DNA of 32,000 nucleotides from Horticoccus luteus (lineage in GTDB: Bacteria; Verrucomicrobiota; Verrucomicrobiia; Opitutales; Opitutaceae), in the NCBI RefSeq assembly GCF_019464535.1, contig NZ_CP080507.1:120001-152000 (forward strand), in the 5' to 3' direction. Position 1 is the stretch's first letter, and every line of letters starts with the position of its first letter. Below are positions 2,079 through 32,000 of the stretch, in pieces. A program made the translations under genes and the position numbers. The notes below the pieces were generated by a model. It was not told the DNA's origin, did not search any database, and saw only the letters and a list, made by a program, of their open reading frames with translations.

Positions 2079-2090
2079 TTAGGGAGCGGG

Positions 2091-2981: not shown

Positions 2982-2992
2982 GGGAAAGGATT

Positions 2993-3030: not shown

Positions 3031-3123
3031 GCCGAGGGAAACGAAGTGGTGGGGGCCGGCGAATCACGCGGAGAGACGCGAAGGCCGGAGCGCTGGGGGC
3101 AGTGAAGCCGGCGCGGGCTGGCT

Positions 3124-3858
3124 TCAGGCGAGCTGGCGGGAGAGGCGGCCTTTGTAGGTCTGGCCGAGGGCGCGGTTGTGTTCGATCGCGCCGGGGAGGT
3201 TTTGACTGCGAAGGAGCGGGAGCGGATGGCCGTGGGTTTTGAGCCAGTCGATGGTGGCGAGCATGAGCCAGTTGAGGACGGAGGCGCCGATGAAGGTCGA
3301 CGTGGGGCCGGCCATGACGCCTTCGCCCGTATCGACGATCGCATCACCGGGCACGCCGCCGTTGTCGAGGGTGTAGTCGGCGACCTCGAAGAGGCGTTGG
3401 CCACCCGGGTGTTGGGAGGGCGTGATCTCGGACATGGCGCGGCAGGTGAGCGCGACGACGGTGAGGCCTTTTTTCTTGGCGTAGAGGGCGACGTCGATGG
3501 GAGAGGTGTTTTTGCCGGAGTTGGAGATGACGAGGACGATTTCGCCGGGGAGGAGTTGATATTGGCGGTCGTAGCGTTCGATGAGTTTGGTGCCGTAGCC
3601 GGGCAGGTTTTCGATGAAGCCGCCGGTGGGATCGATGATGCCGGTGACGCAGACGAGTCCGCCGGCGCGGCCGATGATTTCGCGGGAGATGAGTTCGCTG
3701 TGACCGGAGCCGAAAGTGTGGATGACGCCGCCGCGGGCGATGGATGCGCCGAGGAGGGGCGCGAGCGCGGTGAGCGTGGGGGCGTTGGCGGACCAGGCGC
3801 GGGCGAGCAGGTCGTTGGCGCGGGAGAAATAGGCGTCGGAGAGAGGAGAGAGCGTCAT
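3124..3858 (-). CDS. SIS (sugar isomerase) domain protein, UPF0309-like
   Basis: 244 aa with an ATG start. GGVIHTFGSGHSELISREIIGRAGGL and VISNSGKNTSPIDVA match the SIS phosphosugar-binding fold. Confidence 0.8.
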   Translation of the reverse strand: MTLSPLSDAYFSRANDLLARAWSANAPTLTALAPLLGASIARGGVIHTFGSGHSELISREIIGRAGGLVCVTGIIDPTGGFIENLPGYGTKLIERYDRQYQLLPGEIVLVISNSGKNTSPIDVALYAKKKGLTVVALTCRAMSEITPSQHPGGQRLFEVADYTLDNGGVPGDAIVDTGEGVMAGPTSTFIGASVLNWLMLATIDWLKTHGHPLPLLRSQNLPGAIEHNRALGQTYKGRLSRQLA

Positions 3859-3976
3859 GGGAAATGGGAGGGTCGGGAAGCGGGGAGCCGGGGGCGCACT
3901 TTTGTCCGGGCGGGGCGCGAGACGAGATTCTTTTTCCTCGGCAGAGGTGCGGGCGGCTGCCAGAACGGCGGCTCTT

Positions 3977-18224: not shown

Positions 18225-19373
18225 TCAGGCGGAGGCGACGCGTTCGAGGCGGGCGGCGGCGCGGGGGTCGAGCGTGAGGCCGAGGCCGGGCGCGGTGGAC
18301 AACGTGAGCTGGTCGCTATCGAGCGCGAGCGGCGTGAGAGAGAGGGAGTCGGCGAGGAATTGCGGGCCGTTGAGCGCGCAGGGTTGCGTGACGCCGCTCC
18401 ATGCGAAGAGGTGGGCGGCGGCGCTGAGCGAGAGATCGGGATCGGTGAGGCCGGAGCCGAGGACGCCGAGGCCGCGGTCGCGGAGAAGGCGGACGATTTG
18501 CGCGGAGGGCCAGAGGCCGGCGTTGCGGGCGGGCTTCATCGCGATGCCATCGAGGCATTCGAGGGCGATGAACTCGGCGGCGACTTCGGGCGCGAGGATG
18601 CCTTCATCCATGTAAATGGGGAGCGCGGCCTGGCGTTTGAGCGCTTGATAGCCGCGAATCTGCGTGGGCGGGAGCGGCGATTCGAGCACGTCGACGCCCG
18701 CGTCGCGCAGGCGCGGCGCGAGGGCAAGGGCCTCGGCGGGCGTGTAACCGGTATTGGCGTCGGCCCAGAGGAAACCGGCGGGCGCGAACGCGCGGACGCG
18801 GCGGGCGAGCGCGAGGTCGTAGTCGGCGGATTGGGGCGCGCCGACCTTGATGTTGAAGTTGCGGTAGCCGCGGGCGGCGCCTTCGGCGAGCTGGCGTTCG
18901 ACGACCTCCATTTTCGGCGACGCCACCGTCCAGCTCAACGTGAGCGTGGAGAGGGGCGCGGCGACGGGGGAAGGCCCGAGAAGTTGCGAGGCAGGCACGC
19001 CGCGCTGGTGGCCGACGAGGTCGTGACAGGCGAGGTCGAGGGCGGCTTTGCAGAGCGGTTGACCGACGGAGAACGCGGGGCGGATGGCGGCGTTCATGGC
19101 GGCGTGCAGGCCGGCGAAGTCGGCGGGATCGCGGCCGATGAGCAGGGGAGCGAGATGGTGCTGCAACGTGGTGAGCACGCTTTCGACGGTTTCGTAAGTC
19201 CACGAGGGCACGGGGACGGCCTGCCCCCAGCCGGTGACGCCGTCGGCATCGGTGAGGCGCACGAGCACGGAGGGGCGCGTGACGCGGCCGTCCGGGCCGG
19301 GGCGGAAGAATTTGAATTCGCCGGCGACGGCGTAGTCGAAGCGGCCGATTTCGACGGAAGTGATGGGTGACAT
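18225..19373 (-). CDS. Enolase-superfamily enzyme, mandelate racemase/muconate lactonizing (dipeptide-epimerase-like) subgroup
   Basis: Start at the ATG at 19373 (MSPITSVEIGRF). Capping domain DADGVTGWGQA. Barrel motifs FNIKVG, WADAN (Asp), VLESP (Glu), IYMDEG (Asp), IAMKPAR (Lys). Confidence 0.85.
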   Translation of the reverse strand: MSPITSVEIGRFDYAVAGEFKFFRPGPDGRVTRPSVLVRLTDADGVTGWGQAVPVPSWTYETVESVLTTLQHHLAPLLIGRDPADFAGLHAAMNAAIRPAFSVGQPLCKAALDLACHDLVGHQRGVPASQLLGPSPVAAPLSTLTLSWTVASPKMEVVERQLAEGAARGYRNFNIKVGAPQSADYDLALARRVRAFAPAGFLWADANTGYTPAEALALAPRLRDAGVDVLESPLPPTQIRGYQALKRQAALPIYMDEGILAPEVAAEFIALECLDGIAMKPARNAGLWPSAQIVRLLRDRGLGVLGSGLTDPDLSLSAAAHLFAWSGVTQPCALNGPQFLADSLSLTPLALDSDQLTLSTAPGLGLTLDPRAAARLERVASA

Positions 19374-19407
19374 CAAAGCGAGGGGAGCGGGAGGCGTGCG
19401 CCCGAGA

Positions 19408-20301
19408 TCAGGCGAAGGGGTTGAGCGCGGGGTTGCGCTCGAAGCGGGCGTGGACGTCGCGCAGATAATCGCGGGCGCGGCGGGCGGTTTCGTAGGGATC
19501 GCCGCCGAGGTCGTAGGCTTGCGAGACGATCGGGCCGCGGTAGCCGCGCGACCAGAGGAGGCCGAGGGCGGCGGCGACGTCGATGTTGCCATCGTCGAGG
19601 GGGCGCGTGCGGAAAGGTTCGGCGGGTTTGGGCCAGCCGTTGAGCACGGCGAAGTAGTCGAGTTGCTCCATGCCGGGTTGGGCGAGCACGTCGGGAAGGT
19701 CGGGGACGCCGAGGTGGAAGAACGCGTGGAAAAGCGCGAGGCCGGGACGGAGGACTTTCGCGCCGGCTTCGCGCAGCGCGCGGAGTTGCGCGGCGGGCGT
19801 GTCGATCATGAACCAGATGTGGTTGTAGAGATTGCCGGTGAGGCCGCGGGCGGCGAGGTGGGCATCGATTTCGCGGAGCATGAGCGCAGCGCGTTCCCAG
19901 TGGCGGGGCTCGGCTTGGGCGGAGCCGGCGTCGCGATAGTCGGGCGTGGACTGGCCGGCGGGGTTGCTGAAGATGGTGAAGTTGACGAAGGCGTGCGGGT
20001 CGAGCGCGGCGAGGCGGTCGATGATTTGTTTCGCGCGCGTGACCTCGGCGTCGAAGCGCGGGAACTCATCGTCGGTGATGCCCTTGGCGACAATATACAT
20101 GCCGGCGAGGTGGAGACCGCTCGCGCGGTAAGCGGCGGTGGCCTGGTCCCAGTTTTGATCGTCGTGGGGTTCGAGGGGGTGGAACTCGTAGCCGTCGAAG
20201 CCGAGGTCGGCGGCGACGGCGAGGCGCGTGCGCCAGGGATACGCGCGGCGGTGGCCGACGAAGTGGTTGTTGAAGAGGACGAGGGGATTGGGGAAGGACA
20301 T
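19408..20301 (-). CDS. Xylose-isomerase-like TIM-barrel protein (sugar phosphate isomerase/epimerase family)
   Basis: Start at the ATG at 20301 (MSFPNPLVLFNNHF). LGFDGYEFHP, LYNHIWFMIDTP and GPIVSQAYDLG are compatible with the AP_endonuc_2/XylA-like TIM-barrel family. Assigned by overall pattern only. Confidence 0.7.
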   Translation of the reverse strand: MSFPNPLVLFNNHFVGHRRAYPWRTRLAVAADLGFDGYEFHPLEPHDDQNWDQATAAYRASGLHLAGMYIVAKGITDDEFPRFDAEVTRAKQIIDRLAALDPHAFVNFTIFSNPAGQSTPDYRDAGSAQAEPRHWERAALMLREIDAHLAARGLTGNLYNHIWFMIDTPAAQLRALREAGAKVLRPGLALFHAFFHLGVPDLPDVLAQPGMEQLDYFAVLNGWPKPAEPFRTRPLDDGNIDVAAALGLLWSRGYRGPIVSQAYDLGGDPYETARRARDYLRDVHARFERNPALNPFA

Positions 20302-20336
20302 GGGTGAAGGGTGAGGCGGGCGGAGGGAGAGGGAGT

Positions 20337-20363
20337 GCGGGGTGGGGGGGCACCCCGCCCACA
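20337..20363. repeat. REP-like palindromic element, copy 2
   Basis: GCGGGGTG (20337-20344), gggggg loop, CACCCCGC (20351-20358), then ccaca. Lies in the 89-bp gap after the Gfo/Idh/MocA gene stop. Confidence 0.65.
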
Positions 20364-20390
20364 CTATTGGACGGAGACGGAGCGGGGCGT

Positions 20391-21458
20391 TTATTCGGCG
20401 ACGCGGATGGCTTGCTGCGTGCGGGCGGACGCGAGGACGGCGTCGAGGACGCCGTGGATGCGGAGATTGTCGGCGAGGGTGTTTGCGGTGGGGCGATCTT
20501 CGAGGATGGCGCGGCTGAGGTCGCGGATGGGGTTGACCATGGTGTCGTCCCAATTGGGCGGCGCATCGGGCAGGACGGTGGACTTGAGTTCATCGGTGCC
20601 GAGGTAGGCGTGATGGACCATGCCCGGGCGTTCGGGGAGCGGCATGAAATAGGTGTCGAGGCCGGCGCGCGTGCCGCGGAGCTCGATGTTGTGGCGGGAG
20701 GGGCCGTGTTCGGCGGCGCGGCGTTCCCAGTGAATCGTGAGGCCGTGATCGCAGATGATCTCGGCGCTGTAATAGCCGTCGACATCGAGGCACGGTGGCA
20801 CGCGTTCGGGGGTGAGCGGAAAGTAATGGCCGGTGACGGCGAAGACGACGCGGGGGCGGAAGAGATCGCCGAGGACGAACGCGAGCCAGTCGAGATCGTA
20901 AGGACCCCAGTCGAAGGTGATGCCGCCGCCGTTTTTCGCGGGGTCGTTGCGCCAGGGCGGAAGGGTGCTGCCGGGTTTGGGTGCGCCGATGACCTGTTCG
21001 TAGGAGACGCGGTAGAGGCGGCCCAGGTCGCCGGCGGCGATCAGGGCGCGGGCGCGTTGCGCGGTGCCGGTGGCGAGGTAGCGGGACGAGGCGCAGTTGA
21101 CCTTGAGGTGCGGGTGTTCGCGTTGCACGGCGAGCACGTCGCGCACTTCGGCCTGCGTGAGCATGAAGGGTTTTTCGCAGCAGACGTGTTTGCCGGCGCG
21201 AAGGGCCTCGATCGTCATCGGGCGGTGCAGGAAAGGCGGGGTGGCGAGATAGACGGCGTCGATGGCGGGGTCGGCGAGGAGCTCGCGATAATCGGCGACG
21301 ATGCGCGGCTGGCCGAGGGCGGGCGCGAGTTTCTCGGCGGCGGTGCGATTGACGTCGGCGAGAGCGACGGCGATGGAGTCACGGCCCTCGGTGAAGGCGC
21401 GGGCCATGTAGTTGGCGATGACACCGGCGCCGACGACGCCGTAACGGATGGGTTGCAT
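20391..21458 (-). CDS. Gfo/Idh/MocA family NAD(P)-dependent oxidoreductase
   Basis: 355 aa with an ATG start. Rossmann motif [15 protein letters not shown] and signature HVCCEKPF. No Tat or Sec signal. Confidence 0.9.
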
Positions 21459-21492
21459 GGATGGGAAAAAGAAGGGGCGGGCGAGGAGCGAT

Positions 21493-21524
21493 GCGCGGAG
21501 CGGGGTGAGGGCAGCCCGCCCACA
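21493..21524. repeat. REP-like palindromic element, copy 3
   Basis: gcgcggagcggggtgagggcagcccgcccaca. 30/32 identical to copy 1, with one mismatch in the 3' arm (CAGCCCGC). Lies in the divergent intergenic region 21459-21724. Confidence 0.65.
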
Positions 21525-21724
21525 GGGGATTGGGCGGCGGCGGGAGAAAGGAGTGAAGGAGCGAAGAGGAGAAGGAGGAGCGGGCGCGGGGCAGGGCGGC
21601 GGAGTGTGGGGCGTTTCGGCGGAGCGGGACTAGCTGAAAGACGTGAAAGTTTGCGCGCGATTTTTGTGGTGCAGCGTTGCGTTGCGAGAAACGGCGGCGG
21701 ATGACTCGCCGGAATTTTGCGCGC

Positions 21725-24085
21725 ATGAAACTCACCCCCATCAATTCGGCGGAAGCGATCCTTGAGGCGTTCTATGACGAACAGCTCAGCGGCTGGATGG
21801 AGCACTGGACGTGCGAGGGAGCGGCGGAAGGCCTCGCGCGAAAACAAGGGTGGGCGATGGCGGCGTACGAGTGGGCGCGCACGCCGGCGGACGAAAGCGT
21901 GGCGGCGATGCGGGCGGCGCGAACCTTCACGCCGCCGGTGCCGGCGGAGGATTACGACACGTTGATTTTCTCGATCGTGGCGCCGCCGGGATCGCGGGTG
22001 ACGTTGCGCGTGGGCACGGAGCGGGGCGAGCGGAGCAGCACGAGCACGCCGTTCGCGCACTTGAAACGCGAGTTGGGCGTGGCGCTTGAGGGCGCGCGGG
22101 AAGTGCGCGCGTTGAGCGTGGAAATTTTTGGCGATGCGGTGCGGGCGCCGGGGCCGGTGAGCGGTTGGTTCAACTGGATCGGCTTGCAGGAGCAGCGGCA
22201 GCTCGCGCGGCATTTGCGGCAGTTCGAGCGCTTCGATGCGCGGTGGGAGGACTATCTGAAGCCGGAGAGCTACGAACCGACGTTCGAGCCGGTTTACGGA
22301 CTGCATTTGACGGGAGCGGAACTGGCCGCGGCGCGCGGGCGGCTGGCGGCGGGCGGCGGGCGCGAGCGGTCGCCGCTGGAGGAGCTGGCGGTGGACGCGG
22401 CGCGCACGCCGCCGGAGCGGATGATGTCGGGCTTCGTGAATTTCTGGAACGACACGCGGTTCACGCGGGAGCGGGATTACGGGAAGCATTTGCTGACGCA
22501 TGGCGCGAATGCGGCGCAGGCGGCGGTGTTGTTTCGCGACCAGGCGCTGGGCCGGCTGGCGGCGCGCTATGCGATGGCGATGGCGCACAGCGAACGCTGG
22601 GACAGTGCGTTCGTGTGCTGGATGACGGGGAGCCTCTGGGAGCACCGGGCGTTTGTGCCGAGCCTGGTGATGTATGAGTGCGCGTTGATCCTGGATTTGT
22701 GCGGGGAGTGGTTCACCGACTATGGCCGCGATTTGATTTTGCGGCGGCTGGCGGAGGAAGGGCACGGGACGAACAACTACAACACGTGGTGGTGGGAGTA
22801 TTTGTTTTGGTGCAACCAGGCGGCGTGGTTCATGCCGGGGCGGATGTATGCGTATCTCGTGCTCGAGCGCACGATGCCGGCGCGGTGGACGCCGTATCCG
22901 CGGCCGGCGGAATCGCGCGTGGCGCCTTACACGGAGCTGGCGCTGGCGGATTTGATGGAGAATCTGCGGCGCGTGCTGCTGCCGGACGGCGGTTACACGG
23001 AAGGGCCGATGTATTTCACGTGGACGGCGCGGCAGGCGTTCATCTCGCTGTATTACTACGCCCGGGCGCGGGGGAAGGAGGTGCGCTCGCTGGTGCCGCC
23101 GGCGATGCTCGCGACGGCGCGCATGGCGGAGGTGCTGGTGTCGACCGACGATGCGGCGCAGATGATCATGATCTGCGATGCGCAATACCTGAATCAGGAG
23201 TCGCTCGCGGCGCTGGCGTGGTTGATGCCGGACTCGCACTGGGTGACGATTTTCCGAAAGTCGCTCGCGCACACGGGCGGGCAGCCGTTGACGTTGTTGA
23301 CGGCGAATTTGCTGGCGGAGATTCCGGCGGCGGGGCCGGCGTGGCGCGCGTGCGTGGAGATGAGGGACATCGGGCAGATGGCGTCGCACCGGCGGCTGGG
23401 CGGCGAATGGGTGAAATTGTTTTTGATGGGCAACCAGGCGGGGGCGTCGCACACGCACGAAGACAAGGGGAGCTTCGTGCTGGAGTTTGCGGGCGACAGC
23501 TTCGCGCTGGATTTCGGGATGTGCGATTACAGCAATCCGCTCGGCGATCTGATGAAGCATGCGCAGCGGCACAACATGCTTGTGCCGGTGGCGCCGGGCA
23601 TGCGGCCGCGGCCGGCGAATCCGATCCTGGCGGACATCACGCCGACGGGCAGCGGCGACGAGCGGGCGTTGCATGCGCGCATGGAACTGGCGGCGGGCTG
23701 GGAAGGGTGGTTCACGCGCTGGCAGCGCGCGTGGGATGCGGAGACGCCGGCGGAGTTGACGATCACGGATGAGTGGGAACTCGCGCAGGGGGAGGGCGTG
23801 GCGTTTCACTGGACGACGCCGCTGCCAATCGCGTTGAGCGACGACGGCCGCAGCGCGACGATCGAAGGCCGGCGCGGCCGCGCGCGGTTGACGTGGAGCG
23901 ATGAGGCGACGGCGGTGGTGGAGCAATTGCCGCTGGAAGAACCGAGGTGGAAGGACGTGATGCGGCAGCGGAAGGAGATGGCGCTCGTCGTGCGGCCGTT
24001 GCCGGCGACGCAGCCGCGCCTCACGCTCACGCAGCGCGGGCGGCGCGGTCGGCTGGTGGTGAATGTGAGGTTGGAAGTGAAGTGA
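21725..24085 (+). CDS. Heparinase II/III-like protein (polysaccharide-lyase-like), no signal peptide
   Basis: I prefer the ATG at 21725 (MKLTPINSAEAIL); the track start is 21677. The C-terminal GASHTHEDKGSFVLEFAGDSFALDFG matches the Hepar_II_III His-x-His-x-Asp motif. The central region looks like an alpha/alpha toroid (WWWEYLFWCNQAAW). Confidence 0.7.
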   Translation: MKLTPINSAEAILEAFYDEQLSGWMEHWTCEGAAEGLARKQGWAMAAYEWARTPADESVAAMRAARTFTPPVPAEDYDTLIFSIVAPPGSRVTLRVGTERGERSSTSTPFAHLKRELGVALEGAREVRALSVEIFGDAVRAPGPVSGWFNWIGLQEQRQLARHLRQFERFDARWEDYLKPESYEPTFEPVYGLHLTGAELAAARGRLAAGGGRERSPLEELAVDAARTPPERMMSGFVNFWNDTRFTRERDYGKHLLTHGANAAQAAVLFRDQALGRLAARYAMAMAHSERWDSAFVCWMTGSLWEHRAFVPSLVMYECALILDLCGEWFTDYGRDLILRRLAEEGHGTNNYNTWWWEYLFWCNQAAWFMPGRMYAYLVLERTMPARWTPYPRPAESRVAPYTELALADLMENLRRVLLPDGGYTEGPMYFTWTARQAFISLYYYARARGKEVRSLVPPAMLATARMAEVLVSTDDAAQMIMICDAQYLNQESLAALAWLMPDSHWVTIFRKSLAHTGGQPLTLLTANLLAEIPAAGPAWRACVEMRDIGQMASHRRLGGEWVKLFLMGNQAGASHTHEDKGSFVLEFAGDSFALDFGMCDYSNPLGDLMKHAQRHNMLVPVAPGMRPRPANPILADITPTGSGDERALHARMELAAGWEGWFTRWQRAWDAETPAELTITDEWELAQGEGVAFHWTTPLPIALSDDGRSATIEGRRGRARLTWSDEATAVVEQLPLEEPRWKDVMRQRKEMALVVRPLPATQPRLTLTQRGRRGRLVVNVRLEVK

Positions 24086-24259: not shown

Positions 24260-24300
24260 GTTTACCGACAACAACCATTCACTTTCGAAAGCCCTGAGCG
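24224..24300 (+). promoter_or_regulatory. Attenuator alternative helices (1:2 hairpin and 2:3 antiterminator)
   Basis: CGCCCT (24224-24229) pairs with AGGGCG (24235-24240). CTCAGGGC (24232-24239) can instead pair with GCCCTGAG (24291-24298), which is the 5' arm of the terminator. Confidence 0.55.
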
Positions 24301-24326
24301 ATTCCCGCTCAGGGCTTTTTGTTTTT
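24288..24326 (+). terminator. Rho-independent terminator ending 2 nt before the threonine dehydratase ATG
   Basis: aaaGCCCTGAGCG-attcc-CGCTCAGGGCtttttgttttt. Perfect 10-bp GC-rich stem (24291-24300 / 24306-24315), flanking A/U pairs, and an 11-nt T-rich tail. Confidence 0.8.
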
Positions 24327-24328
24327 CC

Positions 24329-25363
24329 ATGAAGACAACCAGCCACTCCTCCTTCTCTCTCGCTGACGTCGTCGCCGCGCGGCGGCGCATCGCGGGAGGG
24401 CTGCGACTCACGCCGTGCGCCTTGGCGCCGGCCTTTGCGCGGGAGCTGGGGATTTCGATCTGGTTGAAGCGGGAAGATCTGCAGCGGACGGGCTCGTTCA
24501 AGGAGCGCGGGGCGCGGCACGCGTTGTGGTGTTTAACGGAAGCGGAGAAGGCGCGCGGGGTGGTGGCGGCTTCGGCGGGCAATCACGCGCTGGGGCTCGC
24601 GTTTCACGGGCAGCAGCTCGGCGTGCGCGTGACGGTGGTGATGCCGGCGGGGGCGTCGGCGGTGAAGGTGACGCGTTGCCGGCAACTGGGCGCGGACGTC
24701 GTGTTGCACGGAGCGAACTTCGATGCGGCGCAAACGCACGCGGTGGCGCGGGCGGCGGCGGGCGGCGCGGTGCTCGTGCCGCCGTTCGACGACGAGCGGG
24801 TGATCGCGGGGCAAGGGACGCTGGCGCTGGAGATGATGGAGCAGGTGCAGGCGTTTGACACGGTGGTGGTGCCGGTGGGTGGCGGCGGTTTGCTGGCGGG
24901 CGTGGCGACGGCGATCAAGGCGTTGCGGCCGGACGTGAAGGTGGTGGCGGTCGAGCCGGAGCGAGCGGCGGGATTCAGCGCGGCGTGGCGGGCGGGAGCG
25001 CCGGTGCGGATCGCGACGGCGCCGACGCTGGCCGACGGGCTGGCGGTGGCGCGCGTGGGCGAAGTGGCGTTTGCGGTGGCGCGGTCGCGCGTGGACGACG
25101 TCGTGACGGTGAGCGAGCAGGAGTTGGCCAACGCGATCGGCTGGCTGGCGCGAAGCGCGGGCGTCGTGGCGGAAGGCGCGGGGGCGGCGGCGCTGGCGGC
25201 GGTGATGGCGGGAAAAGTGCGGACGCGCGTAGTGATCGTGCCGGTGACGGGCCGCAACGTGGATCCCAGGGCGCATGCGCGCGCGGTGGCGGCAGGCGGC
25301 GCGTGCGAAGGGATCGCGGCGGCGAATCAGGCGCGGGCCACGAGGAGGCTGATGATTTCGTAG
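24329..25363 (+). CDS. ilvA: Threonine ammonia-lyase (threonine dehydratase), short form without a C-terminal regulatory domain
   Basis: 344 aa. PLP-lysine motif TGSFKERGA, SAGNHA, glycine loop PVGGGGLLAG. The length leaves no room for ACT-like regulatory domains. The ilvA assignment is supported by the Ile leader upstream. Confidence 0.8.
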   Translation: MKTTSHSSFSLADVVAARRRIAGGLRLTPCALAPAFARELGISIWLKREDLQRTGSFKERGARHALWCLTEAEKARGVVAASAGNHALGLAFHGQQLGVRVTVVMPAGASAVKVTRCRQLGADVVLHGANFDAAQTHAVARAAAGGAVLVPPFDDERVIAGQGTLALEMMEQVQAFDTVVVPVGGGGLLAGVATAIKALRPDVKVVAVEPERAAGFSAAWRAGAPVRIATAPTLADGLAVARVGEVAFAVARSRVDDVVTVSEQELANAIGWLARSAGVVAEGAGAAALAAVMAGKVRTRVVIVPVTGRNVDPRAHARAVAAGGACEGIAAANQARATRRLMIS

Positions 25364-28300
25364 GGCGCGAAAGGCAGGTGGTTCGCGCGCAGGGCGGCGC
25401 GCGTCAGCGGGCGGTCGAGAAGATCGACTTTGCGTGCGGTCCAGCCGTCGGCGAGTTGCAATCGCGCGGTGCCGCGCTGGCCGCCCACTTCATGAAGGCG
25501 GAGGATCCAGCGATCGCGGTCGATCGGCCGTGCCCAACACGGGATGAGCGTGTCGCCGCCGTCGAGGCCATGGAACGCACTCGTGTGGGGCGCGCCCGTG
25601 TAGCGCACGGGCGGCGTGAACAGCGTGTCGGCGAGCGCGGCGGGTTGCTCGGCGCGGGGCGCGGCGGCGCGATAGGCGCCGAGCGCGAGTTCGATGACGT
25701 GACGCCCCTGATCGGTGAAGCGCGAGGCTGGTTGCGGGAGGCGGCTGAGGTGAGCTTGATACGCTTTCGCGTGATCCTCGTAGCCGACGTGAAGAGGGCT
25801 GCGCACGAGGGAAACGCCGAGATTGCCGTCGCGGCAGTTCACGCCGTATTTCGCTTCGGTGACGACGAAGAGACCTTCGGTTTCGGCATCGGCAAACACC
25901 GCGGCCCAACGGCTCATCGGCGTTTCCCACATGGCTTCGGCCTGCGGATGCGTCAAAAGTTGCGGACGGAGAATGCTGCCCATCGGGCCGCCGCAGCGCA
26001 TTTCGCGCGCGGCGTAGCGGGTGGGGAGGTGCCAGCGAAGCATCGTGTCCTCCTCGTGCCAATCGAGGTCGATCGTGAGGCGGAGGACGCTGGCGGCGGG
26101 TTCAAGCCAGTAGCGGAGCGCGATGGTGCTGGCGCGGCCGAGGCGGCGGCGGACGACGAGGGCGTCGCCGTCGAGCTCGAGCGTGGCGGGGGTGCGCACG
26201 GGTTGGCCGAGCGAGAACGAATGGCGATCGATGTCCCACGGGCCGAAGTTGGCGGGCTGTTCTGGATACAGGACGAGTTCGGCGGGGGCGGAGAAATCGA
26301 CGGCGCGGCCATCGATGGTCAACGCAGCGAGGCGGCCGCTGCGGTCGAGGCGCGCGGTGACGCGGCCGTTGGTGAGCGAGCGGCCGGAGGCGGCGACCGG
26401 TGGCGCGGCGATCGCAGCGGCGTCGGCGAGACGGACGCCGGCGAGGGGCGGCAGGGGCACCACGCGACCGTCGAGGACGCAGGTGCGCGCGAGCGGGAGC
26501 GGGTTGAACACGCAGGCGGCGGACGCCGCGGCGGAGGAAGGTTTGCGGGACGGCGGCGGGGCGAGCGAGGCGACGGCGGCGGCGGATTGTTGCGCGGTGA
26601 GGTGGGCGAGTTCGGGGAGGCCTTCGGCGTAAACCTCCGGAATGCCGCTGCCGGGAATGAAGTCGTGGAACTGCGCGAACACCATGCGTTGCCACGCGTG
26701 ATCGAGGGCGGCATCCGGCGCGTGGTGGGTGACGACGAGAGCGGCTTCGCGCGTTTGGAGGGCGCGTTCGAGCGCGCGGAAGGCGGACTTCACGGGGCTC
26801 TGCGTCGTGTAGGTGCCGCGGTGATATTCGAGGTAGATCTCGCCGTCGTGGATCGGAAGGCGCGCGCGGGTGGGAGCGAGGCGGTCGAAGAAGGCTTCGG
26901 GTTGATCCCACTGCAGCGCGGGGAGGCCGCGCAGGGCGTTGAGGCGGCGGGCGCGTTCGCACATGTCGGCGGAAGGGCCGCCGCCGCCGTCGCCCCAGCC
27001 GGTGGGCAGGAGCACCTCGGGATGCAGGTCGCCTTGGTAATTGCCGCGGGTGGCGGCGCGGACCTGCGCGACGGTGACGGCGTTGTTGAACTGCACGCCT
27101 TGGGTGACGTGGCTGAGGACGGCGTGGCCGCCGGGTCCGCGCCAGACAAAGCTGGAGTGCGGGAAGCGGTTGGTGGTGTTCCACGTGGTCTTGGTCGTGA
27201 AAAAATAGTCCACACCGCAGAGGCGCATGAGTTGCGGGAGGCAGGCGGCGAAGCCGAACAGGTCGGGGAGCCAGAGCACGCGGGAGTGCCGGCCGGAGAG
27301 CTGCCGGAAGGCCTCCTGGCCGAGGGTGAACGTGCGCACGAGACCTTCGCCGCAGGGGAGGTTGGAATCGCTTTCGACATACATGCCGCCGGTGGCTTCC
27401 CACTGGCCGGAGTGCAGGCGCTGGCGAACGGCGGCGAGGAGGGCGGGGGCGCGGCGGCCGACGGCCTCGTAACTCATGGGCTGGGAGTAGGCGAAACGGA
27501 ATTCCGGATACTGCGCCATGAGGCGGTTGGCGTTGGCGAAGGTGTGCACGGCCTTGCCCTCGCCGATGTGTTCGGGCCAGAGCCAGACGAGGTCGAGGTG
27601 CGAGTGGCCGGTGAGCGCGGCGGAGGCGAGCGGCGCGGGATCGCGGAGTTCGCGATAAACCCGCGCCAGGCCGCGGCGAAGCGCGGCGACGTCGCCGGAT
27701 TCAAAGGCATCGAGGGCGAGGTCGACGCCGCGCAGCAGGCGGCGATAGAGCGGCGAGACGTCGGCGAGCGGCGCCTGCGCGGTCATGGCGTTGAGGGCGG
27801 GCGCCACGCCGGGATGCTCCTTGGCGCGAAGGTCGAGCATCCATTCGTAGAGGCAGTTGAGATCGTGATACGCACCCCACGCTTCGTCGTGGCGGGTGAG
27901 AAGCTGCGCGCCGCGGAAGAGATTTCCGGCGGGCGTGAGGCCCTGCGCGTCGGGATGCCAGATGGCGGCCTGCACGCAGAGGCACTCGAGCCAGAGCTCG
28001 TGCGCCCCGGAAGGGAGTTCGCAGTGGCGGTGCGCGACGTCGAAACCGAAGTAGGGCAGGCCGTCGACGTAGAGGGTGGCTTCCCCCTGTTCGTCCCAAT
28101 GCAGCCAGCGGGAGGCGGGGCGGGCGTTACGTGGAGCGGCGGGCAGGATGATGCGGCACCAGCGTTGATCGTAGAGGCGGCCCCACGCGGTGCCGGGGCG
28201 GACGGCGCGGCGGGGGAGTTTTTGCGCGGCCGGGAGAGAGAGGGGGCGCGGATGCGCGGCGGTGGCCTCGACGGAGAGCGGTTGTGGATTGCTCCAGATG

Positions 28301-28374
28301 AGGTCTTGGAGGCGCAAGACGCCGCGTTGGGTGCGGAGCGGGGTGAGGTGAAGAGCCGGGTTGGGGGGCAGCAT
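25327..28374 (-). CDS. Glycoside hydrolase family 38 alpha-mannosidase
   Basis: I prefer the ATG at 28374 (MLPPNPAL); the track uses the TTG at 28437. LTGHSHLDLVWLWP, VLWLPDLFGF and IYLEYHRGTYTTQ are GH38 catalytic-domain motifs. No signal peptide. The 3' end overlaps the ilvA 3' end by 37 nt (convergent). Confidence 0.9.
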   Translation of the reverse strand: MLPPNPALHLTPLRTQRGVLRLQDLIWSNPQPLSVEATAAHPRPLSLPAAQKLPRRAVRPGTAWGRLYDQRWCRIILPAAPRNARPASRWLHWDEQGEATLYVDGLPYFGFDVAHRHCELPSGAHELWLECLCVQAAIWHPDAQGLTPAGNLFRGAQLLTRHDEAWGAYHDLNCLYEWMLDLRAKEHPGVAPALNAMTAQAPLADVSPLYRRLLRGVDLALDAFESGDVAALRRGLARVYRELRDPAPLASAALTGHSHLDLVWLWPEHIGEGKAVHTFANANRLMAQYPEFRFAYSQPMSYEAVGRRAPALLAAVRQRLHSGQWEATGGMYVESDSNLPCGEGLVRTFTLGQEAFRQLSGRHSRVLWLPDLFGFAACLPQLMRLCGVDYFFTTKTTWNTTNRFPHSSFVWRGPGGHAVLSHVTQGVQFNNAVTVAQVRAATRGNYQGDLHPEVLLPTGWGDGGGGPSADMCERARRLNALRGLPALQWDQPEAFFDRLAPTRARLPIHDGEIYLEYHRGTYTTQSPVKSAFRALERALQTREAALVVTHHAPDAALDHAWQRMVFAQFHDFIPGSGIPEVYAEGLPELAHLTAQQSAAAVASLAPPPSRKPSSAAASAACVFNPLPLARTCVLDGRVVPLPPLAGVRLADAAAIAAPPVAASGRSLTNGRVTARLDRSGRLAALTIDGRAVDFSAPAELVLYPEQPANFGPWDIDRHSFSLGQPVRTPATLELDGDALVVRRRLGRASTIALRYWLEPAASVLRLTIDLDWHEEDTMLRWHLPTRYAAREMRCGGPMGSILRPQLLTHPQAEAMWETPMSRWAAVFADAETEGLFVVTEAKYGVNCRDGNLGVSLVRSPLHVGYEDHAKAYQAHLSRLPQPASRFTDQGRHVIELALGAYRAAAPRAEQPAALADTLFTPPVRYTGAPHTSAFHGLDGGDTLIPCWARPIDRDRWILRLHEVGGQRGTARLQLADGWTARKVDLLDRPLTRAALRANHLPFAPYEIISLLVARA

Positions 28375-28935
28375 CGCGGCGGCACGCTCGCGGGACGAGC
28401 GGTGGGGGGCAAATGTTTCCTGACGTCGGGCGGGCAAGCCCTGATCCCGGCCAGTCGGACGAGGAGAGCGGACGACGAAGTCGCGCCGCCGACTGCGCCG
28501 TCTGCGCCGGCAAAATCGGCGGTGGCGCAGCGGTCCCGTTGGCGGAGAGCACCTCGGTGGCGGTCGCGGACGCTACCGGGTGTTTCGACTCTGAGTCCAT
28601 TTCGGTTACTCGCCGCTGAAGCATGTCGTTGGCCTCGACCCGCCCACTTCCTTCGCCAAGCTCGACGGTTAACAAATGCGAATGTTCAAAATCCACGTCG
28701 GCTCGACCGCTTGGGGGCTGCGCTTTCCCCGCGACCGAGCGGCTCTTATCTTGGCCGACTGGGATGCAGTTGGGCGTCGACAGAACACTTTCTGCCCAGA
28801 GCGGATGATGCGCCGTTGGTGGTTCGACGGCCAATAAGGGACGCCCTCGCAGTCGTGTCTTCCAACGATAACCTTCCGCTCTCGCTTGCCGGTCATCCTG
28901 ATGACGAAAGGCCCGTCCAACACCGCGTCTTAGGG

Positions 28936-30474
28936 ATGCGACGATCTCCAGTTCTCCGCGGGCTGGTCTTCGCTGGTGCTTCGGCGGTGGCGGTGAGTTT
29001 CCCGCTCGCGCTCGGCCGATTTCTCTGGCCGCAAGGATTGAGCGCCGGGGCCGAGTTCATTTTCTGGCCCGCCTCGGGCGTCAACGTCGCCGGGCTCCTC
29101 ATCCTCGGCTGGCGCTACTGGCCGGCGATTCTGTGCGGCATTCTGCCCGCGTGGCTTTTCTTCGACCAATCGCTGGCGCATTCCGCCCTCGGTGCTGCGG
29201 GCAACATCATGGAGGCGCTCGCGTGCTGGTGGATCCTGCATCGCTTTGGGCATTTTGACGGACGATTCGACCGCGTGCGGGCGGTCATTGCGTTGTGCGG
29301 GGCGGCGTTGTTGGCGCCGTTCATCTGCTCGCTCACGGTTCCTGCCTACCTCGTTTTGAACGGCACTTATCCGCGCGCTGAATTTCTCCAGGCGATCAGT
29401 AATTGGAATCTCGCCAACGGGGCCGCCATCCTCGTGCTCACCCCGTTTCTGCTCGCGCTGCGGCAACGCGTTTGGACCTGCCGCGAGCGTCCATTGGAAA
29501 CGCTGGCGTGGATCGGCGCCGGCGTGGGGCTCGGGTTGTTCGCCTTCAACGCCGTATTTCGATTCCACGGCGAAAACTACGCTTTCCTGGTGTTCCCCTT
29601 TGTCATTTTCGCCGCCACCCGCTTCGACCCGCCCGAGACCACCGTGGCCCTCGTCCTCGTGCTGGCCACGATCTACGGGGCACTGGTCGTTGCGGCGGGT
29701 GCTCTCCCCGCGGGAGACGTGCCCGCCATCGCGTGGTTCACGCAGGCGTTTCTCTGGGTGCTCGCCGCCACCGGTCTGAGCATGGCCGCGCTGACCGCCG
29801 AGCGCCGCCAGTCCGACCACCGGGCGCACATCGAGCAAACGCGTTCGCTCGAAGCCTCGCTGCGGGAAGCCCGCGCCCGGCTCGATTCTCTCCGTTATCA
29901 AGTCAACCCCCACTTTCTCTTCAACACCCTCAACTCGATCCGCTCGCTCACCCTCACCGAACCGTCCAAGGCGCGTGATCTCATCTCGCACCTCGCCTCG
30001 TTTTGTCGGCGAGCGCTCGCGCCCGCCACCGAGCCGCTCATCCCGTTGCACGAAGAATGGACCGCGCTGACGGATTATCTCGCCATGGAAAAAGCGCGCT
30101 GGGAGTCGCGTCTGCAAATCGAGACCCAACTCGACCCGGCGCTCGCCGGCGTGCGCGTGCCGCCGTTGTTGCTCCAGCCGCTCGTCGAGAACGCCGTCAA
30201 ATATGGCCAGCGAACGACGCCGCTCGGCGTGCTCCATCTGCACGTGACCGCAGCCCGCGAAGACTCGACGCTCGTGATCCTCGTGGCCAACACCGGCCGT
30301 TGGGTGCAGCCCGTCGCCACGCCTGACCACACTTCGACGTTGGTCGGCCTCAACAATGTCCGCGCGCGCCTCGCCGTTTGTTATTCGACCCAGGCCTCGC
30401 TGACCTTCACGGAGGAGCCGGGCTGGGTTCGCGCCACGCTCCGCATTCCCTTCCACACGCTCTCCGCCTCCTGA
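28936..30474 (+). CDS. Sensor histidine kinase: MASE1-like membrane domain plus LytS/AlgZ-type His_kinase and ATPase domains
   Basis: This is the last 512 codons of the 1829-aa track ORF, starting at the ATG at 28936 (MRRSPVLRGLVF). The membrane part FWPASGVNVAGLLILGWRYWPAILCG is MASE1-like. YQVNPHFLFNTLNSI is the LytS-family phospho-His box. LLLQPLVENAVKYG is the N-box. Confidence 0.85.
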   Translation: MRRSPVLRGLVFAGASAVAVSFPLALGRFLWPQGLSAGAEFIFWPASGVNVAGLLILGWRYWPAILCGILPAWLFFDQSLAHSALGAAGNIMEALACWWILHRFGHFDGRFDRVRAVIALCGAALLAPFICSLTVPAYLVLNGTYPRAEFLQAISNWNLANGAAILVLTPFLLALRQRVWTCRERPLETLAWIGAGVGLGLFAFNAVFRFHGENYAFLVFPFVIFAATRFDPPETTVALVLVLATIYGALVVAAGALPAGDVPAIAWFTQAFLWVLAATGLSMAALTAERRQSDHRAHIEQTRSLEASLREARARLDSLRYQVNPHFLFNTLNSIRSLTLTEPSKARDLISHLASFCRRALAPATEPLIPLHEEWTALTDYLAMEKARWESRLQIETQLDPALAGVRVPPLLLQPLVENAVKYGQRTTPLGVLHLHVTAAREDSTLVILVANTGRWVQPVATPDHTSTLVGLNNVRARLAVCYSTQASLTFTEEPGWVRATLRIPFHTLSAS

Positions 30475-30480
30475 CCAGCC

Positions 30481-31179
30481 GTGCCCCCGACCGCCCTGAT
30501 CGTCGATGACGAAGCGCCCGCCCGGCGCGAGTTGTCCTTCCTGCTCAAAGCCCATCCGCACATCAACGTGGTCGCCGAAGCGGCCACGCTCGCCGAAGCC
30601 CGCGCCGCGCTGCAAGAGCACGCCCCTGACCTTGTATTTCTCGACATTCACCTCATGGGCGAAAACGGGTTCGATCTCGCCCCCGACATCCGATCCGCCA
30701 CCCGGGTCATCTTTGTCACCGCCGACGACACCGCCGCGCTCCGGGCCTTCCGCGTTAATGCCCTGCACTACCTCCTCAAGCCGATCAGTCCTGCCATGCT
30801 GGCCGACGCCATCGACCGGCTCTCTCCGCTGCGACTGAACGAGCCGCCCGACGACGAACGCGTCCTGCTGCGCTCGAGCGGAGCCCGGCGCTTTGTCCAC
30901 CCCAGCGAAATCATCGTCCTCGAGGCCGTCGGCGCCTACACCCGCGTTTATCTCACGGATGGCACCCGTCCGCTGGTGCTTCGTTCGCTCAAATCATGGC
31001 ACGAGACATTGCCGCCGCCCGCTTTTTTGCGCATTCATCGCAACGCCATCGTCAACCTCGCCCGTGTTCAGTCCGTGAGCCAAAACCGCGTCGTTGAGCT
31101 CGCTCCCGGCGCGCTGCGCTTCGAAGCCAGTCGACGCGAAATTTCCGCCCTCCGCGCCCGACTCGCCGGCGAACGATAG
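30481..31179 (+). CDS. LytTR/AlgR-family response regulator
   Basis: GTG start. Receiver domain ALIVDDE ... DLVFLDIHLMGENGF ... LLKP. C-terminal LytTR domain IIVLEAVGAYTRVYLTDG ... FLRIHRNAIVNL. Confidence 0.9.
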   Translation: MPPTALIVDDEAPARRELSFLLKAHPHINVVAEAATLAEARAALQEHAPDLVFLDIHLMGENGFDLAPDIRSATRVIFVTADDTAALRAFRVNALHYLLKPISPAMLADAIDRLSPLRLNEPPDDERVLLRSSGARRFVHPSEIIVLEAVGAYTRVYLTDGTRPLVLRSLKSWHETLPPPAFLRIHRNAIVNLARVQSVSQNRVVELAPGALRFEASRREISALRARLAGER

Positions 31180-31198
31180 ACCGGAGGCGGAGCGTTCC

Positions 31199-31248
31199 TC
31201 CGTTCGTGCAGAATCCGATACCGTTCATGCAGCTCGCATCGCGTTCGT
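31199..31248 (+). promoter_or_regulatory. Three phased LytTR/AlgR-type 9-mers upstream of the TPS-domain gene
   Basis: TCCGTTCGT (31199-31207) and ACCGTTCAT (31220-31228) both fit [TA][AC][CA]GTTN[AG][TG] exactly, with a 12-nt spacer. CGCGTTCGT (31240-31248) is a partial match with an 11-nt spacer. CCGTTCGTG matches the AlgR 9-mer CCGTTCGTC at 8/9 positions. Confidence 0.55.
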
Positions 31249-31276
31249 TTTCGCAGCCATCAGGTTCCGCTACGAA

Positions 31277-32000
31277 ATGCCCTCCTCCAAGGCCCGGCGC
31301 ACCCAACCCTTTCTCGCATTTTTTCGCACGCGGCTGACGCCGTTCACTTTCCCCGTGGCCATCGCCGCGCTCGCGCCGCTTGTGGTGCTTCCCCAAGGCT
31401 ACGCGTTGCCCGCCGGCCCGCAGGTCGTGGCAGGCGACGTTACCATCGGCCGTTCCGGAAACACCCTTAACATCGCCCAAGGCTCCCAACACGCCGTCGT
31501 CAACTGGCAAGGCTTCGACATCGCGCAAAACGAGCTCGTCCGCCTTCGCCAGACCAGCAACGCCGCCATGCTCGCGCGTGTCACCGGCGGCAATCCCACC
31601 CAACTTCTCGGCACGCTTCAGGCCGACGGAAAACTTTTCCTCATCAATCCCAAGGGCATCGTGGTCGGTCAGGGCGCGGTGATCGATACCGCGGCCTTCA
31701 TGGCGTCCACGCTTGATGTGAGCGATGCGGATTTCCTGCGCGGTGGCGCGCTGACGTTCAAAGGCGACAGCGCCGCCGGCGTCGCGAATTACGGTGAGAT
31801 CACGGCTCGCGAAGGCAGCGTAATGCTGTTCGCCCACACCGTAAAAAACGCCGGCCAGATCAACGCGACCAACGGCACCGTCGGTCTCGGTGCAGGCACC
31901 GAGGTTTACCTCGCGGCCCCCGACGCCACCGGCTTTGTCATCAAGAGCAACCTGCCCGCCACGACGAAGAAAACCGGTGTGGACAACGCCGGCGTCATCG
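31277..32000 (+). CDS. Two-partner-secretion exoprotein (filamentous haemagglutinin-type TPS domain); N-terminal 241 codons, continues past the right edge
   Basis: Absent from the track because it is open to the edge. ATG at 31277, and I checked the frame open to 32000. Long signal region MPSSKARRTQPFLAFFRTRLTPFTFPVAIAALAPLVVLPQGYA. TPS motifs: AVVNWQGFDIAQNELVRLRQ, ARVTGGNPTQLLGTLQADGKLFLINPKGIVVG. Confidence 0.85.
   Translation, partial: MPSSKARRTQPFLAFFRTRLTPFTFPVAIAALAPLVVLPQGYALPAGPQVVAGDVTIGRSGNTLNIAQGSQHAVVNWQGFDIAQNELVRLRQTSNAAMLARVTGGNPTQLLGTLQADGKLFLINPKGIVVGQGAVIDTAAFMASTLDVSDADFLRGGALTFKGDSAAGVANYGEITAREGSVMLFAHTVKNAGQINATNGTVGLGAGTEVYLAAPDATGFVIKSNLPATTKKTGVDNAGVI

Follow-up and report, generated by a model that had tools for sequence, protein, structure and literature searches.

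We analysed a 32,000-nt stretch of the genome of Horticoccus luteus (contig NZ_CP080507.1, positions 120,001 to 152,000), hereafter the window, which carries a cluster of genes for a Gfo/Idh/MocA oxidoreductase, a xylose-isomerase-fold TIM-barrel protein and an enolase-superfamily enzyme (together, the trio), an ATP-binding cassette (ABC) importer and a divergently transcribed 786-aa heparinase II/III-like protein. We tentatively favor the interpretation, to which we give a little under an even chance, that this locus, which is conserved in Opitutaceae, imports an acidic, mannose-containing oligosaccharide and degrades it in the cytoplasm. A first-pass annotation, made from the sequence alone, had proposed a cytoplasmic catabolic unit, and this proposal is supported by the co-conservation of the genes and by the lack of signal peptides: none of the N-termini of the trio and the heparinase-like protein was signal-like when read by eye.

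Conservation of the Locus

We mapped the proteins of the window onto 76 loci from species-representative genomes and 33 loci from metagenomes. Neighboring genes were counted in 49 loci anchored on an orthologue of the TIM-barrel gene, the denominators being the loci with enough flanking DNA. An enolase-family gene was found around the TIM gene in 40 of 43 loci and a Gfo gene in 34 of 39, and the heparinase-like gene was present nearby in 28 of 31. The other recurrent neighbors were a gene for an α-mannosidase of glycoside hydrolase (GH) family 38 (16/20 loci), the fused gene for a substrate-binding protein (SBP) and permease (18/27), OppC (16/24) and a PhyH-type dioxygenase (10/21). A pyridoxal phosphate (PLP) enzyme was found in only 4 of 24 loci and is loosely linked to the cluster. 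The genes flanking this core vary between loci, and the co-conservation of the core far exceeds the leftover expected from gene-order drift. A lack of co-conservation had been named in the first-pass annotation as grounds for abandoning its proposal, and the TIM-anchored loci show the opposite. That annotation delimited a unit of five genes: co-conservation supports the unit, but its list of genes requires revision since GH38 is a constant partner that belongs to the conserved unit, the Gfo and enolase genes are absent in some lineages, as are the heparinase-like gene and the transporter in others, and genes for PhyH and for a GH36-like α-galactosidase homologue recur. The latter homologue (70 bits to T. 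maritima GalA) and an AraC regulator are found beyond the transporter in other loci and are both absent from the window.

The closest relatives of every protein of the cluster come from metagenome-assembled genomes (MAGs) of Opitutaceae. Outside this family, a Planctomycetes MAG (L081) has kept the order Gfo-TIM-enolase with overlapping genes, and the three proteins are 53, 57 and 70% identical to those of the window. The neighbors of this trio encode PhyH, DUF485 with an ActP/MctC-like carboxylate symporter, a weak PL22-like β-propeller protein and GH95; the symporter points to a small carboxylate as the substrate of the trio. Of two other distant loci, L082 retained the Gfo-TIM pair with four PhyH genes and GH95, and in L083 the TIM orthologue adjoins an unrelated Gfo-family gene. 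Because a metagenome scan starting from the Planctomycetes TIM protein returned only Opitutaceae-type loci, the cross-phylum evidence consists of L081 together with the pair of L082 and the orthologue of L083.

Several variants of the locus are informative about the links between its parts. In three loci (L004, L095, L097), the TIM gene alone is left between the transporter and the heparinase-like gene, and GH38 is kept, which ties the TIM protein to the heparinase-like protein. No other gene accompanies the heparinase-like gene as constantly as the TIM gene does. Heparinase-like paralogues are found on both sides of the trio in L079, and one paralogue stands directly beside it in L073. In L105 and L115, GH38 lies directly upstream of Gfo-TIM-enolase on the same strand and the heparinase-like gene is not nearby.

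Genes for PhyH-type Fe/2-oxoglutarate dioxygenases recur across phyla beside the trio and beside heparinase-like paralogues (L006, L008, L012, L013, L017, L019-L021, L079-L082, L087, L090, L099, L103, L105 and L115), and the window has none. Variable neighbors annotated as xanthine-dehydrogenase subunits, a TonB receptor, a ParB-like nuclease and an SLT domain protein were set aside as unrelated.

A Cytoplasmic Protein with a Polysaccharide-Lyase Fold

The 786-aa protein is cytoplasmic and has a polysaccharide-lyase (PL) fold. A marginal C-terminal match to Hepar_II_III_C was the sole Pfam signal in all 11 diverse members that we compared, and no NCBIfam model matches the protein of the window. 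An exhaustive search of 1.84 billion cluster representatives yielded 533 clusters at E<=1e-3 and 202 at E<=1e-30, and most of the matching clusters were full length with 27-47% identity. Judging from these searches, the heparinase-like proteins are a distinct family of modest size. The AlphaFold2 (AF2) model presents β structure at residues 30-155, helices at 157-530 and β structure again at 540-786, which correspond to an N-terminal β-sandwich, an (α/α)6 toroid and a C-terminal β-sheet domain. The best fold match was the cytoplasmic exo-alginate lyase Atu3025 of family PL15 (3A0O; E 2e-20), which aligned over the whole length with ~14% identity, followed by PL35, PL33, exoHep, DS-epimerase 1, PL12 and PL17 (11-16% identity across all fold alignments). 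The model and the full-length match to 3A0O agree on the three-domain layout of PL15. At the sequence level, a profile search of all PDB chains retrieved no PL15 chain and only chains of PL35 (E 2e-4 to 0.24), and the identity to PL15 in the fold alignments is 11-14%.

The 11 diverse members share the invariant residues N364, P420-D-G-G-Y-x-E-G-P-x-Y430, H576-x-H578-E-D, D596 and H616. The Tyr (Y430) and His (H576/H578) motifs align to the corresponding motifs of PL35 in HMMER alignments. The 146-148 residues that separate Y430 from H576/H578 can be likened to the Tyr-to-His spacing of 153 in PL33 (PMC11848413) and of 165-166 in the PL15 enzymes exoHep and VBAly15A (PMC11921355). Enzymes of the heparinase II/III-like lyase/epimerase clan (PL12, 15, 17, 21, 33, 35, 39 and DS-epimerase) combine an Asn or His that stabilizes charge, a Tyr acid/base located in the toroid, and a His and a structural metal site that both belong to the β domain. 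The catalytic pair of PL15 is His311/Tyr365, 54 residues apart (PMC11921355). Candidates in place of His311 are H288-x-x-R291 and N364, and the latter is a candidate charge stabilizer. Lyase chemistry is consistent with these data, and an epimerase or other activity is also possible.

In Opitutaceae this family has undergone a strong expansion, and as many as four paralogues can lie in tandem within ~20 kb. Tandem arrays of two to four paralogues sharing 47-55% identity were found in L040, L056, L058, L062, L066, L070, L080 and the P0109 contig. Their neighbors include TonB-dependent receptors with FecR/sigma factors, SBP_bac_1, PhyH, Amidohydro_2, a DegT aminotransferase and a GH106 rhamnosidase. 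Among the best 80 species-representative loci, the sole match outside Verrucomicrobia was found in Paenibacillus cymbidii R196 (L001/L055). This homologue is 52% identical and adjoins a 962-aa heparinase-like protein, a CUT1-type sugar ABC importer, an AraC-type regulator and an unrelated Gfo enzyme. Its occurrence suggests lateral transfer of the lyase-fold gene.

An Importer Related to Sugar-Binding Proteins

The fusion protein presents an N-terminal membrane anchor, a family-5 binding domain (Pfam SBP_bac_5 match 1.1e-47), an extra linker transmembrane helix and an OppB-type permease, a topology that would keep the binding domain outside the cell. The binding protein and OppB were fused in all the orthologues seen. 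An Opp/Dpp-type importer comprises a family-5 binding protein, two permeases and two ATPases; the binding domain and both permeases are present here, and OppC scored 265 bits against the NCBIfam model Opp4C, which is below the cut-off. The importer had initially been described as peptide-type. The binding domain is, however, closest to a T. maritima protein (5IPW, 318 bits), to the pectin-oligosaccharide binder SPH1118 of Sphingomonas sp. A1 (7VER, 254 bits) and to the α-galactoside binder AgpA (6EPY, 108 bits), whereas true peptide binders scored below 70 bits. Although SPH1118 had been annotated as binding oligopeptides, its ligand is unsaturated trigalacturonate, and it does not bind peptide digests (PMC9314435). 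Because the nearest characterized relatives bind sugars, and SPH1118 does not bind peptides, the ligand is more likely an oligosaccharide, probably an acidic one, than a peptide. Like SPH1118 and 5IPW, the domain of the window belongs to the large family-5 binding proteins annotated as oligopeptide binders; unlike them, it is membrane-anchored and fused to a permease. No ABC ATPase (Walker A, LSGGQ) was found anywhere in the window or in the open reading frames (ORFs) examined in related loci, and the ATPases of the importer must be encoded elsewhere.

The Oxidoreductase, TIM-Barrel and Enolase-Superfamily Proteins

The oxidoreductase has the Rossmann domain, the E-K-P motif (95-97, within C-C-E-K-P-F at 93-98), the C-terminal domain and the Asp...His/Tyr pair of the Gfo/Idh/MocA family. 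This pair reads D183-W-G-P-Y187, with a Tyr where many members have D...H. Asp35, located after strand 2, suggests the use of NAD rather than NADP. The nearest structures are those of 1,5-anhydrofructose reductase, DgpA and several C1-oxidizing enzymes, and these matches fall largely in the Rossmann half. The best NCBIfam match was IolG with 84.3 bits against a cut-off of 355. Membership in families of known unrelated function such as inositol catabolism, which would have undermined the first-pass proposal, was not observed: no protein of the cluster reached the cut-off of a named equivalog, and the TIM protein matched no IolE model.

The TIM protein in fact matched no NCBIfam model at all and no PDB sequence. 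It does possess the AP_endonuc_2 fold: the AF2 model (predicted local distance difference test, pLDDT, of 92) has UlaE, D-tagatose and L-ribulose 3-epimerases, YcjR and IolE as fold neighbors, with template modeling (TM) scores of ~0.7. Because the PDB search was empty and a profile-profile comparison with a canonical TIM-fold neighbor from L081 aligned only the first 32 columns, the mapping of its residues is drawn from weak HMMER alignments. Three independent alignments (UlaE, 5HMQ and 7CJ4), weak as they are (E 0.07-1), place Gln261 at the strand-8 Glu, and the alignment with UlaE places Leu220/Asn221 at the strand-7 His. The remaining two ligand sites, assigned by strand position, correspond to Y159/N160 and A189/L190, none of which is acidic. 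The canonical Glu/Asp/His/Glu site of strands 5-8 thus appears to have been lost. The adjacency of Gfo and TIM genes had been presented as the established core of known routes, but that argument rests on a canonical metal site in the TIM protein, and the apparent replacements on strands 7 and 8 undercut it. Many His, Asp, Arg and Tyr residues of the TIM protein are invariant, and it is therefore likely to be an enzyme whose active site has been rebuilt.

The enolase-superfamily member was expected to keep the D/E/D metal ligands and the strand-6 Lys with a KxK motif reading N-I-K, and we recovered exactly these residues (N174-I175-K176, D205/E231/D256 and K280), together with D311. Its best sequence matches were muconate and chloromuconate cycloisomerases (112-115 bits, full length), and the protein aligns with these enzymes end to end, with D205/E231/D256, K176 and K280 matching their residues and Asn174 replacing the first Lys of KxK. 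The muconate-lactonizing subgroup carries its D/E/D ligands on strands 3-5, the K-x-K motif on strand 2 and a further Lys on strand 6; these residues are therefore present except for Asn174, and an acidic residue stands at the position that we take to be Glu327 of muconate lactonizing enzyme (MLE). The description of this protein as dipeptide-epimerase-like did not hold: it scored 145.2 bits against TIGR02534 (muconate/chloromuconate cycloisomerase), itself below the cut-off of 334.95, but 69.1 bits (cut-off 500) and 18.9 bits (cut-off 343) against the models of L-Ala-D/L-Glu epimerases. The second best NCBIfam match was cis-3-hydroxy-L-proline dehydratase (99 bits). In the alignment with cycloisomerases, strand 8 reads C-A-L-N-G-P and lacks the two Asp of Asp-x-Asp at the strand end, which we take to be the dipeptide-epimerase motif. 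By these measures, muconate cycloisomerases are closer relatives of the enolase member than dipeptide epimerases are. It resembles MLE and its chloromuconate counterpart in its D/E/D ligands, second KxK Lys, strand-6 Lys and acidic residue at the presumed Glu327, and differs from them in its sub-threshold score, in Asn174 and in a genomic context of glycan rather than aromatic metabolism. Orthologue-filtered identities were 72-82% across Opitutaceae loci. The list of homologues was filled by close orthologues and provided no functional name. A galactarolactone-cycloisomerase-like role was considered and dropped: the match to 4GGB/4HPN, presumably Gci, was weak (56 bits) and covered part of the protein.

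GH38 and a Conserved Intergenic Repeat

The α-mannosidase has the N-terminal, middle and C-terminal domains of GH38, is of the cytosolic Ams1-like type without a signal peptide and matched 7UFS (284 bits) and Ams1 in the PDB. The PLP enzyme lacks a regulatory domain and scored below the cut-off of every NCBIfam model.

The region between the divergent Gfo and heparinase-like genes contains the only occurrence in the window of the direct repeat TGAAAR-N3-4-TGAAAR, for which 0.02 occurrences are expected. At least 14 orthologous loci have the same repeat upstream of their heparinase-like gene, with differing intergenic sequences around it (L007, L008, L012, L017, L020, L022, L090, L092, L107, L110, L112, L116 and others). 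It ends ~10-15 nt before the start codon in most loci and lies ~75 nt upstream in the window, and it is often preceded by CGCTCGCCACTAG. This repeat is a candidate shared operator or promoter element. In L090 and L012, short tandem repeats of GGGGACTAA/GGGACTGAG fill the Gfo-proximal part of the same intergenic region.

A Proposed Pathway and Its Alternatives

Based on these properties, the locus may function as follows. The importer, with its family-5 domain, OppB and OppC, would take up an oligosaccharide rather than a peptide, as its nearest solved relatives suggest. The Asn/Tyr/His motifs of the 786-aa protein lead us to expect that it cleaves a 4-O-substituted uronic acid off the chain end by β-elimination, like Atu3025. 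GH38 would remove α-mannose, and in many relatives the GH36-like α-galactosidase homologue would add the capacity to process a galactose-containing substrate. The released acid monosaccharide would then be converted into a central intermediate by the Gfo/TIM/enolase module. In the scheme that we prefer for this step, the TIM protein and an NAD-dependent Gfo would isomerize and reduce 4-deoxy-5-keto-uronate in a manner similar to KduI/KduD and DhuI/DhuD, while the enolase member would abstract the proton next to the carboxylate (C5 of the uronate), thereby dehydrating or opening a saturated or ring-closed form. We prefer this scheme because the TIM gene is the one that most reliably accompanies the heparinase-like gene and because the Planctomycetes trio adjoins a carboxylate symporter, but this assignment of roles, drawn by analogy, is doubtful. 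The two divergent units are probably co-regulated through the conserved TGAAAR direct repeat. Among the substrates originally listed, a uronate or unsaturated oligosaccharide is the best fit, and a glycopeptide or amino-acid conjugate is disfavored by the sugar-binding relatives of the importer.

The locus is of a familiar kind, with an ABC importer, a cytoplasmic lyase, a glycosidase and sugar-acid enzymes, and the alginate systems of Agrobacterium tumefaciens (Atu3025) and Sphingomonas sp. A1 are the nearest to it. Those systems also rely on ABC import of an acidic oligo- or polysaccharide into the cytoplasm. They differ in that the lyase-fold protein of the window is ~14% identical to Atu3025 with no sequence-level match to PL15, the importer is of Opp type with a fused binding domain and GH38 is present. 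The downstream genes differ as well: they encode Gfo, a TIM-fold protein and an enolase member and not the reductase for 4-deoxy-L-erythro-5-hexoseulose uronate (DEH), kinase and aldolase that we assume to compose the Agrobacterium locus. KduI/KduD and DhuI/DhuD are two non-homologous versions of the conversion of unsaturated uronate to 2-keto-3-deoxygluconate (KDG), and their existence makes a third version plausible. In both, as proposed here, an isomerase and an NAD(P)H reductase act right after a cytoplasmic uronate lyase or hydrolase; the proteins of the window share no homology with them, the catalytic site typical of its fold seems to be missing from the TIM protein, and the activity is a prediction.

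Several observations weigh against the pathway that we favor. The activities throughout these families are predicted only. Motifs and spacing, rather than a superposition, were used to place the catalytic residues of the heparinase-like protein, no His occurs 53-57 residues before Y430, and the counterpart of PL15 His311 could not be placed confidently. The TIM protein appears to be devoid of the ligands of the known isomerases and epimerases of its fold, so that an isomerase role would be without direct precedent. No member of the muconate-lactonizing subgroup is, to our knowledge, active on a sugar acid. Genes for KDG kinase/aldolase, KduI/KduD and Uxa/Uxu were absent from every locus examined. 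The arrangement of L105 and L115 fits a mannose-linked role of the trio equally well. Finally, the neighbor counts overstate independent support since the loci were not de-duplicated and nearly all of them belong to a single family, Opitutaceae.

Alternative routes for the trio can be drawn from other sugar pathways. Gfo could oxidize a glycoside at C3 and the TIM protein eliminate the aglycone, and perhaps hydrate the product, as in LgdA/LgdB, DgpA/DgpBC and BT2156-2160, with the heparinase-like enzyme and GH38 acting alongside. Such an oxidation-elimination route would account for the adjacency of Gfo and AP_endonuc_2 genes across phyla (L081, L082), and it agrees with the sub-threshold NCBIfam matches of Gfo to levoglucosan dehydrogenase (83.6 bits) and to the BT_2158/BT_2159 glycoside 3-dehydrogenases, with the presence of DgpA and a glucuronide 3-dehydrogenase among its PDB matches and with YcjR, a 3-keto-glucoside epimerase, as a fold neighbor of the TIM protein. 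In LgdA/LgdB1-B2/LgdC, DgpA/DgpBC and BT2156-2160 the same two families are likewise adjacent, cytoplasmic and NAD-linked. However, none of the Gfo matches comes anywhere near its family cut-off, the Glu/His ligands of known eliminases and epimerases seem to be missing from the TIM protein, where the β7 and β8 positions are replaced, and some loci have kept TIM without a partner Gfo. The additional enolase-family gene, which has no counterpart in any of those systems and whose product is the best conserved of the trio (70% across phyla), would have no role, and we consider this route unlikely. An oxidative, non-phosphorylative route would instead process the mannose, or related sugar, that GH38 releases, with Gfo as an aldose 1-dehydrogenase, the TIM protein performing a lactone step and the enolase member dehydrating the sugar acid to a 2-keto-3-deoxy acid. 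A dehydrogenase, a lactonase and an enolase-family dehydratase are the standard layout of oxidative sugar routes. GH38 is found in 16 of 20 loci and stands head to tail with Gfo-TIM-enolase, with no heparinase-like gene, in L105 and L115; moreover, the PDB relatives of Gfo include the C1-oxidizing glucose-fructose oxidoreductase, aldose-aldose oxidoreductase and L-glucose dehydrogenase. The Tyr at the catalytic position of Gfo also favors this route, as glucose-fructose oxidoreductase presumably has a Tyr at the same place. Yet the enolase member has the Lys/Lys arrangement of cycloisomerases, and the sugar-acid dehydratases that we know of sit in other enolase subgroups. Proteins with this TIM fold are not known to act as lactonases, TIM-only loci would be senseless, and the Planctomycetes trio is paired with a carboxylate symporter and no GH38. 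This route has a low probability as well.

The remaining explanations are improbable. A glycopeptide or amino-acid conjugate could be imported by the Opp-like system and its amino-acid-derived moiety epimerized or dehydrated by the enolase member. The Opp/Dpp type of the permeases, the cis-3-hydroxy-L-proline dehydratase match, the Thr/Ser-dehydratase-like gene that comes next in the window and in a few loci, and the asparaginase and PhyH-type dioxygenases near some loci would agree with this idea. It is made quite improbable by the sugar-binding relatives of the binding domain, including SPH1118 with its lack of peptide binding, by the rarity of the PLP enzyme, by the low scores of the dipeptide-epimerase models and by the lack of a conserved peptidase or amidase in the locus. 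An inositol glycan such as the Man-GlcA-inositol head group of plant and fungal glycosyl inositol phosphorylceramide (GIPC) sphingolipids would suit both GH38 and the lyase, given its α-mannose on glucuronate O4; the two enzymes would free inositol for Gfo and TIM acting as IolG and IolE. IolG is indeed the best NCBIfam match of Gfo and IolE is a fold neighbor of the TIM protein, and a phytase and a PLD-like gene found inside single loci (L013, L021) offer weak support. Nevertheless, the IolG score (84 against 355 bits), the absence of a match to the IolE model, the single occurrences of phytase and PLD, the lack of any other iol gene nearby and the lack of a role for the enolase member render this substrate very improbable. 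The least probable explanation is that descent alone accounts for the proximity of the genes, which would then not belong to a single pathway. In its favor, nearly all the loci come from Opitutaceae, there are lineages that lack the Gfo, the enolase, the heparinase-like or the transporter gene, and a strong terminator lies between the heparinase-like gene and the next genes. Descent alone would not readily explain that the core persists while its flanks vary, that the trio is kept across phyla, that heparinase-like paralogues flank the trio in L079 and adjoin it in L073, or that a conserved repeat occupies the shared intergenic region.

Returning to the acidic, mannose-containing oligosaccharide as the substrate, what is new in this locus is that every enzyme lies outside characterized families, that the TIM protein breaks a family-defining feature and that the gene combination is undescribed in the literature searched. 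The first-pass annotation could not map these genes onto a described pathway, which is in line with our search, although the absence of a match in the literature searched is no proof of novelty. A bolder claim, which we regard as a long shot, is that the 786-aa protein founds an unclassified polysaccharide-lyase family and that the trio constitutes a third non-homologous route, common to Verrucomicrobia and Planctomycetes, that turns uronates, unsaturated uronates or another acid sugar into a central metabolite and employs a xylose-isomerase-fold protein with a rebuilt site and the first muconate-lactonizing-subgroup member directed at a sugar acid. In lakes and soils, Opitutaceae and Planctomycetes rank among the major degraders of complex glycans from algae and plants. 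Unassigned proteins of the Gfo/Idh/MocA, xylose-isomerase-fold and heparinase-like families, which are heavily expanded in these phyla, make up much of their enzyme repertoire. The locus connects a defined subfamily of each family with a transporter and a mannosidase, and the resulting seven genes form a compact set that is amenable to testing. Should the roles that we propose prove correct, they would provide a new lyase family, a new acid-sugar feed into central metabolism and a functional handle on these expanded families. If they fail, the locus would still be a well-defined target for substrate discovery.

Gene Content of the Window

The features of the cluster region are listed in Table 1. 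The initial ORF coordinates, the 89- and 34-bp gaps within the trio and the 193-bp gap to the fused transporter gene were all reproduced, and Pfam bore out the domain calls for the trio and the heparinase-like protein, the latter at the threshold. The OppC ATG overlaps the stop codon of the fusion gene (ATGA). All the mapped genes of the cluster region are on the minus strand with the exception of the heparinase-like and PLP-enzyme genes. The window has a G+C content of 67%, and the frame-specific G+C content at third codon positions (GC3) of the cluster genes is high, as expected for true coding genes here. The database entry P0001 is identical in length and sequence to the 786-aa protein.

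Table 1. Features of the cluster region (coordinates in the window)
Feature	Coordinates	Strand	Evidence or remark
OppC-type ABC permease, 443 aa	13386..14717	-	Pfam OppC_N and BPD_transp_1
SBP-permease fusion, 1105 aa	14714..18031	-	Pfam SBP_bac_5, BPD_transp_1_N and BPD_transp_1
Enolase-superfamily enzyme, 382 aa	18225..19373	-	Pfam MR_MLE_N 1.8e-15, MR_MLE_C 1.2e-31
Xylose-isomerase-fold TIM barrel, 297 aa	19408..20301	-	Pfam AP_endonuc_2 7e-16, 59 bits vs 31
Gfo/Idh/MocA oxidoreductase, 355 aa	20391..21458	-	Pfam GFO_IDH_MocA N- and C-terminal domains, 1.5e-24
Direct repeat TGAAAG-ACG-TGAAAG, Gfo/heparinase-like intergenic region	21635..21649	+	Motif count
Heparinase II/III-like protein, 786 aa, divergent	21725..24085	+	Pfam Hepar_II_III_C 24.1 bits, cut-off 24
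Terminator-like hairpin, 14-bp stem then T run	24287..24319	+	~200 nt past the heparinase-like gene
Thr/Ser-dehydratase-like PLP enzyme	24329..25363	+	Pfam PALP 2e-85
GH38 α-mannosidase, convergent	25327..28437	-	Pfam GH38 N 4e-67, middle 4.6e-17, C 1.6e-18

The GC skew jumps from ~+0.25 to ~-0.2 at about 28450-28750. This switch is unrelated to gene orientation because the plus-strand heparinase-like gene sits in the part with positive skew, and it suggests a replication terminus or another strand-switch point. Inspection by eye revealed no convincing dif-like site at the switch. Further downstream, the plus strand (29113-31999) encodes a MASE1/LytS-type histidine kinase, a LytTR response regulator and the start of an exoprotein with a two-partner secretion (TPS) domain; these genes adjoin the cluster and are not conserved along with it. 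At the other end of the window, a separate small sugar cluster on the minus strand (1-4050) encodes a GH2 enzyme, a BadF-type sugar kinase and an SIS-domain protein, and ~9 kb of housekeeping genes separate it from the main locus. The GH2 enzyme has an N-domain of β-mannosidase/exo-glucosaminidase type and extends beyond the start of the window. The 5' ends of the SIS-domain open frame (3124-4050, minus strand) and of an S9-peptidase ORF (3833-5962, plus strand) overlap by ~220 bp on opposite strands, and the true start of one or both of these genes probably lies inside its open frame.

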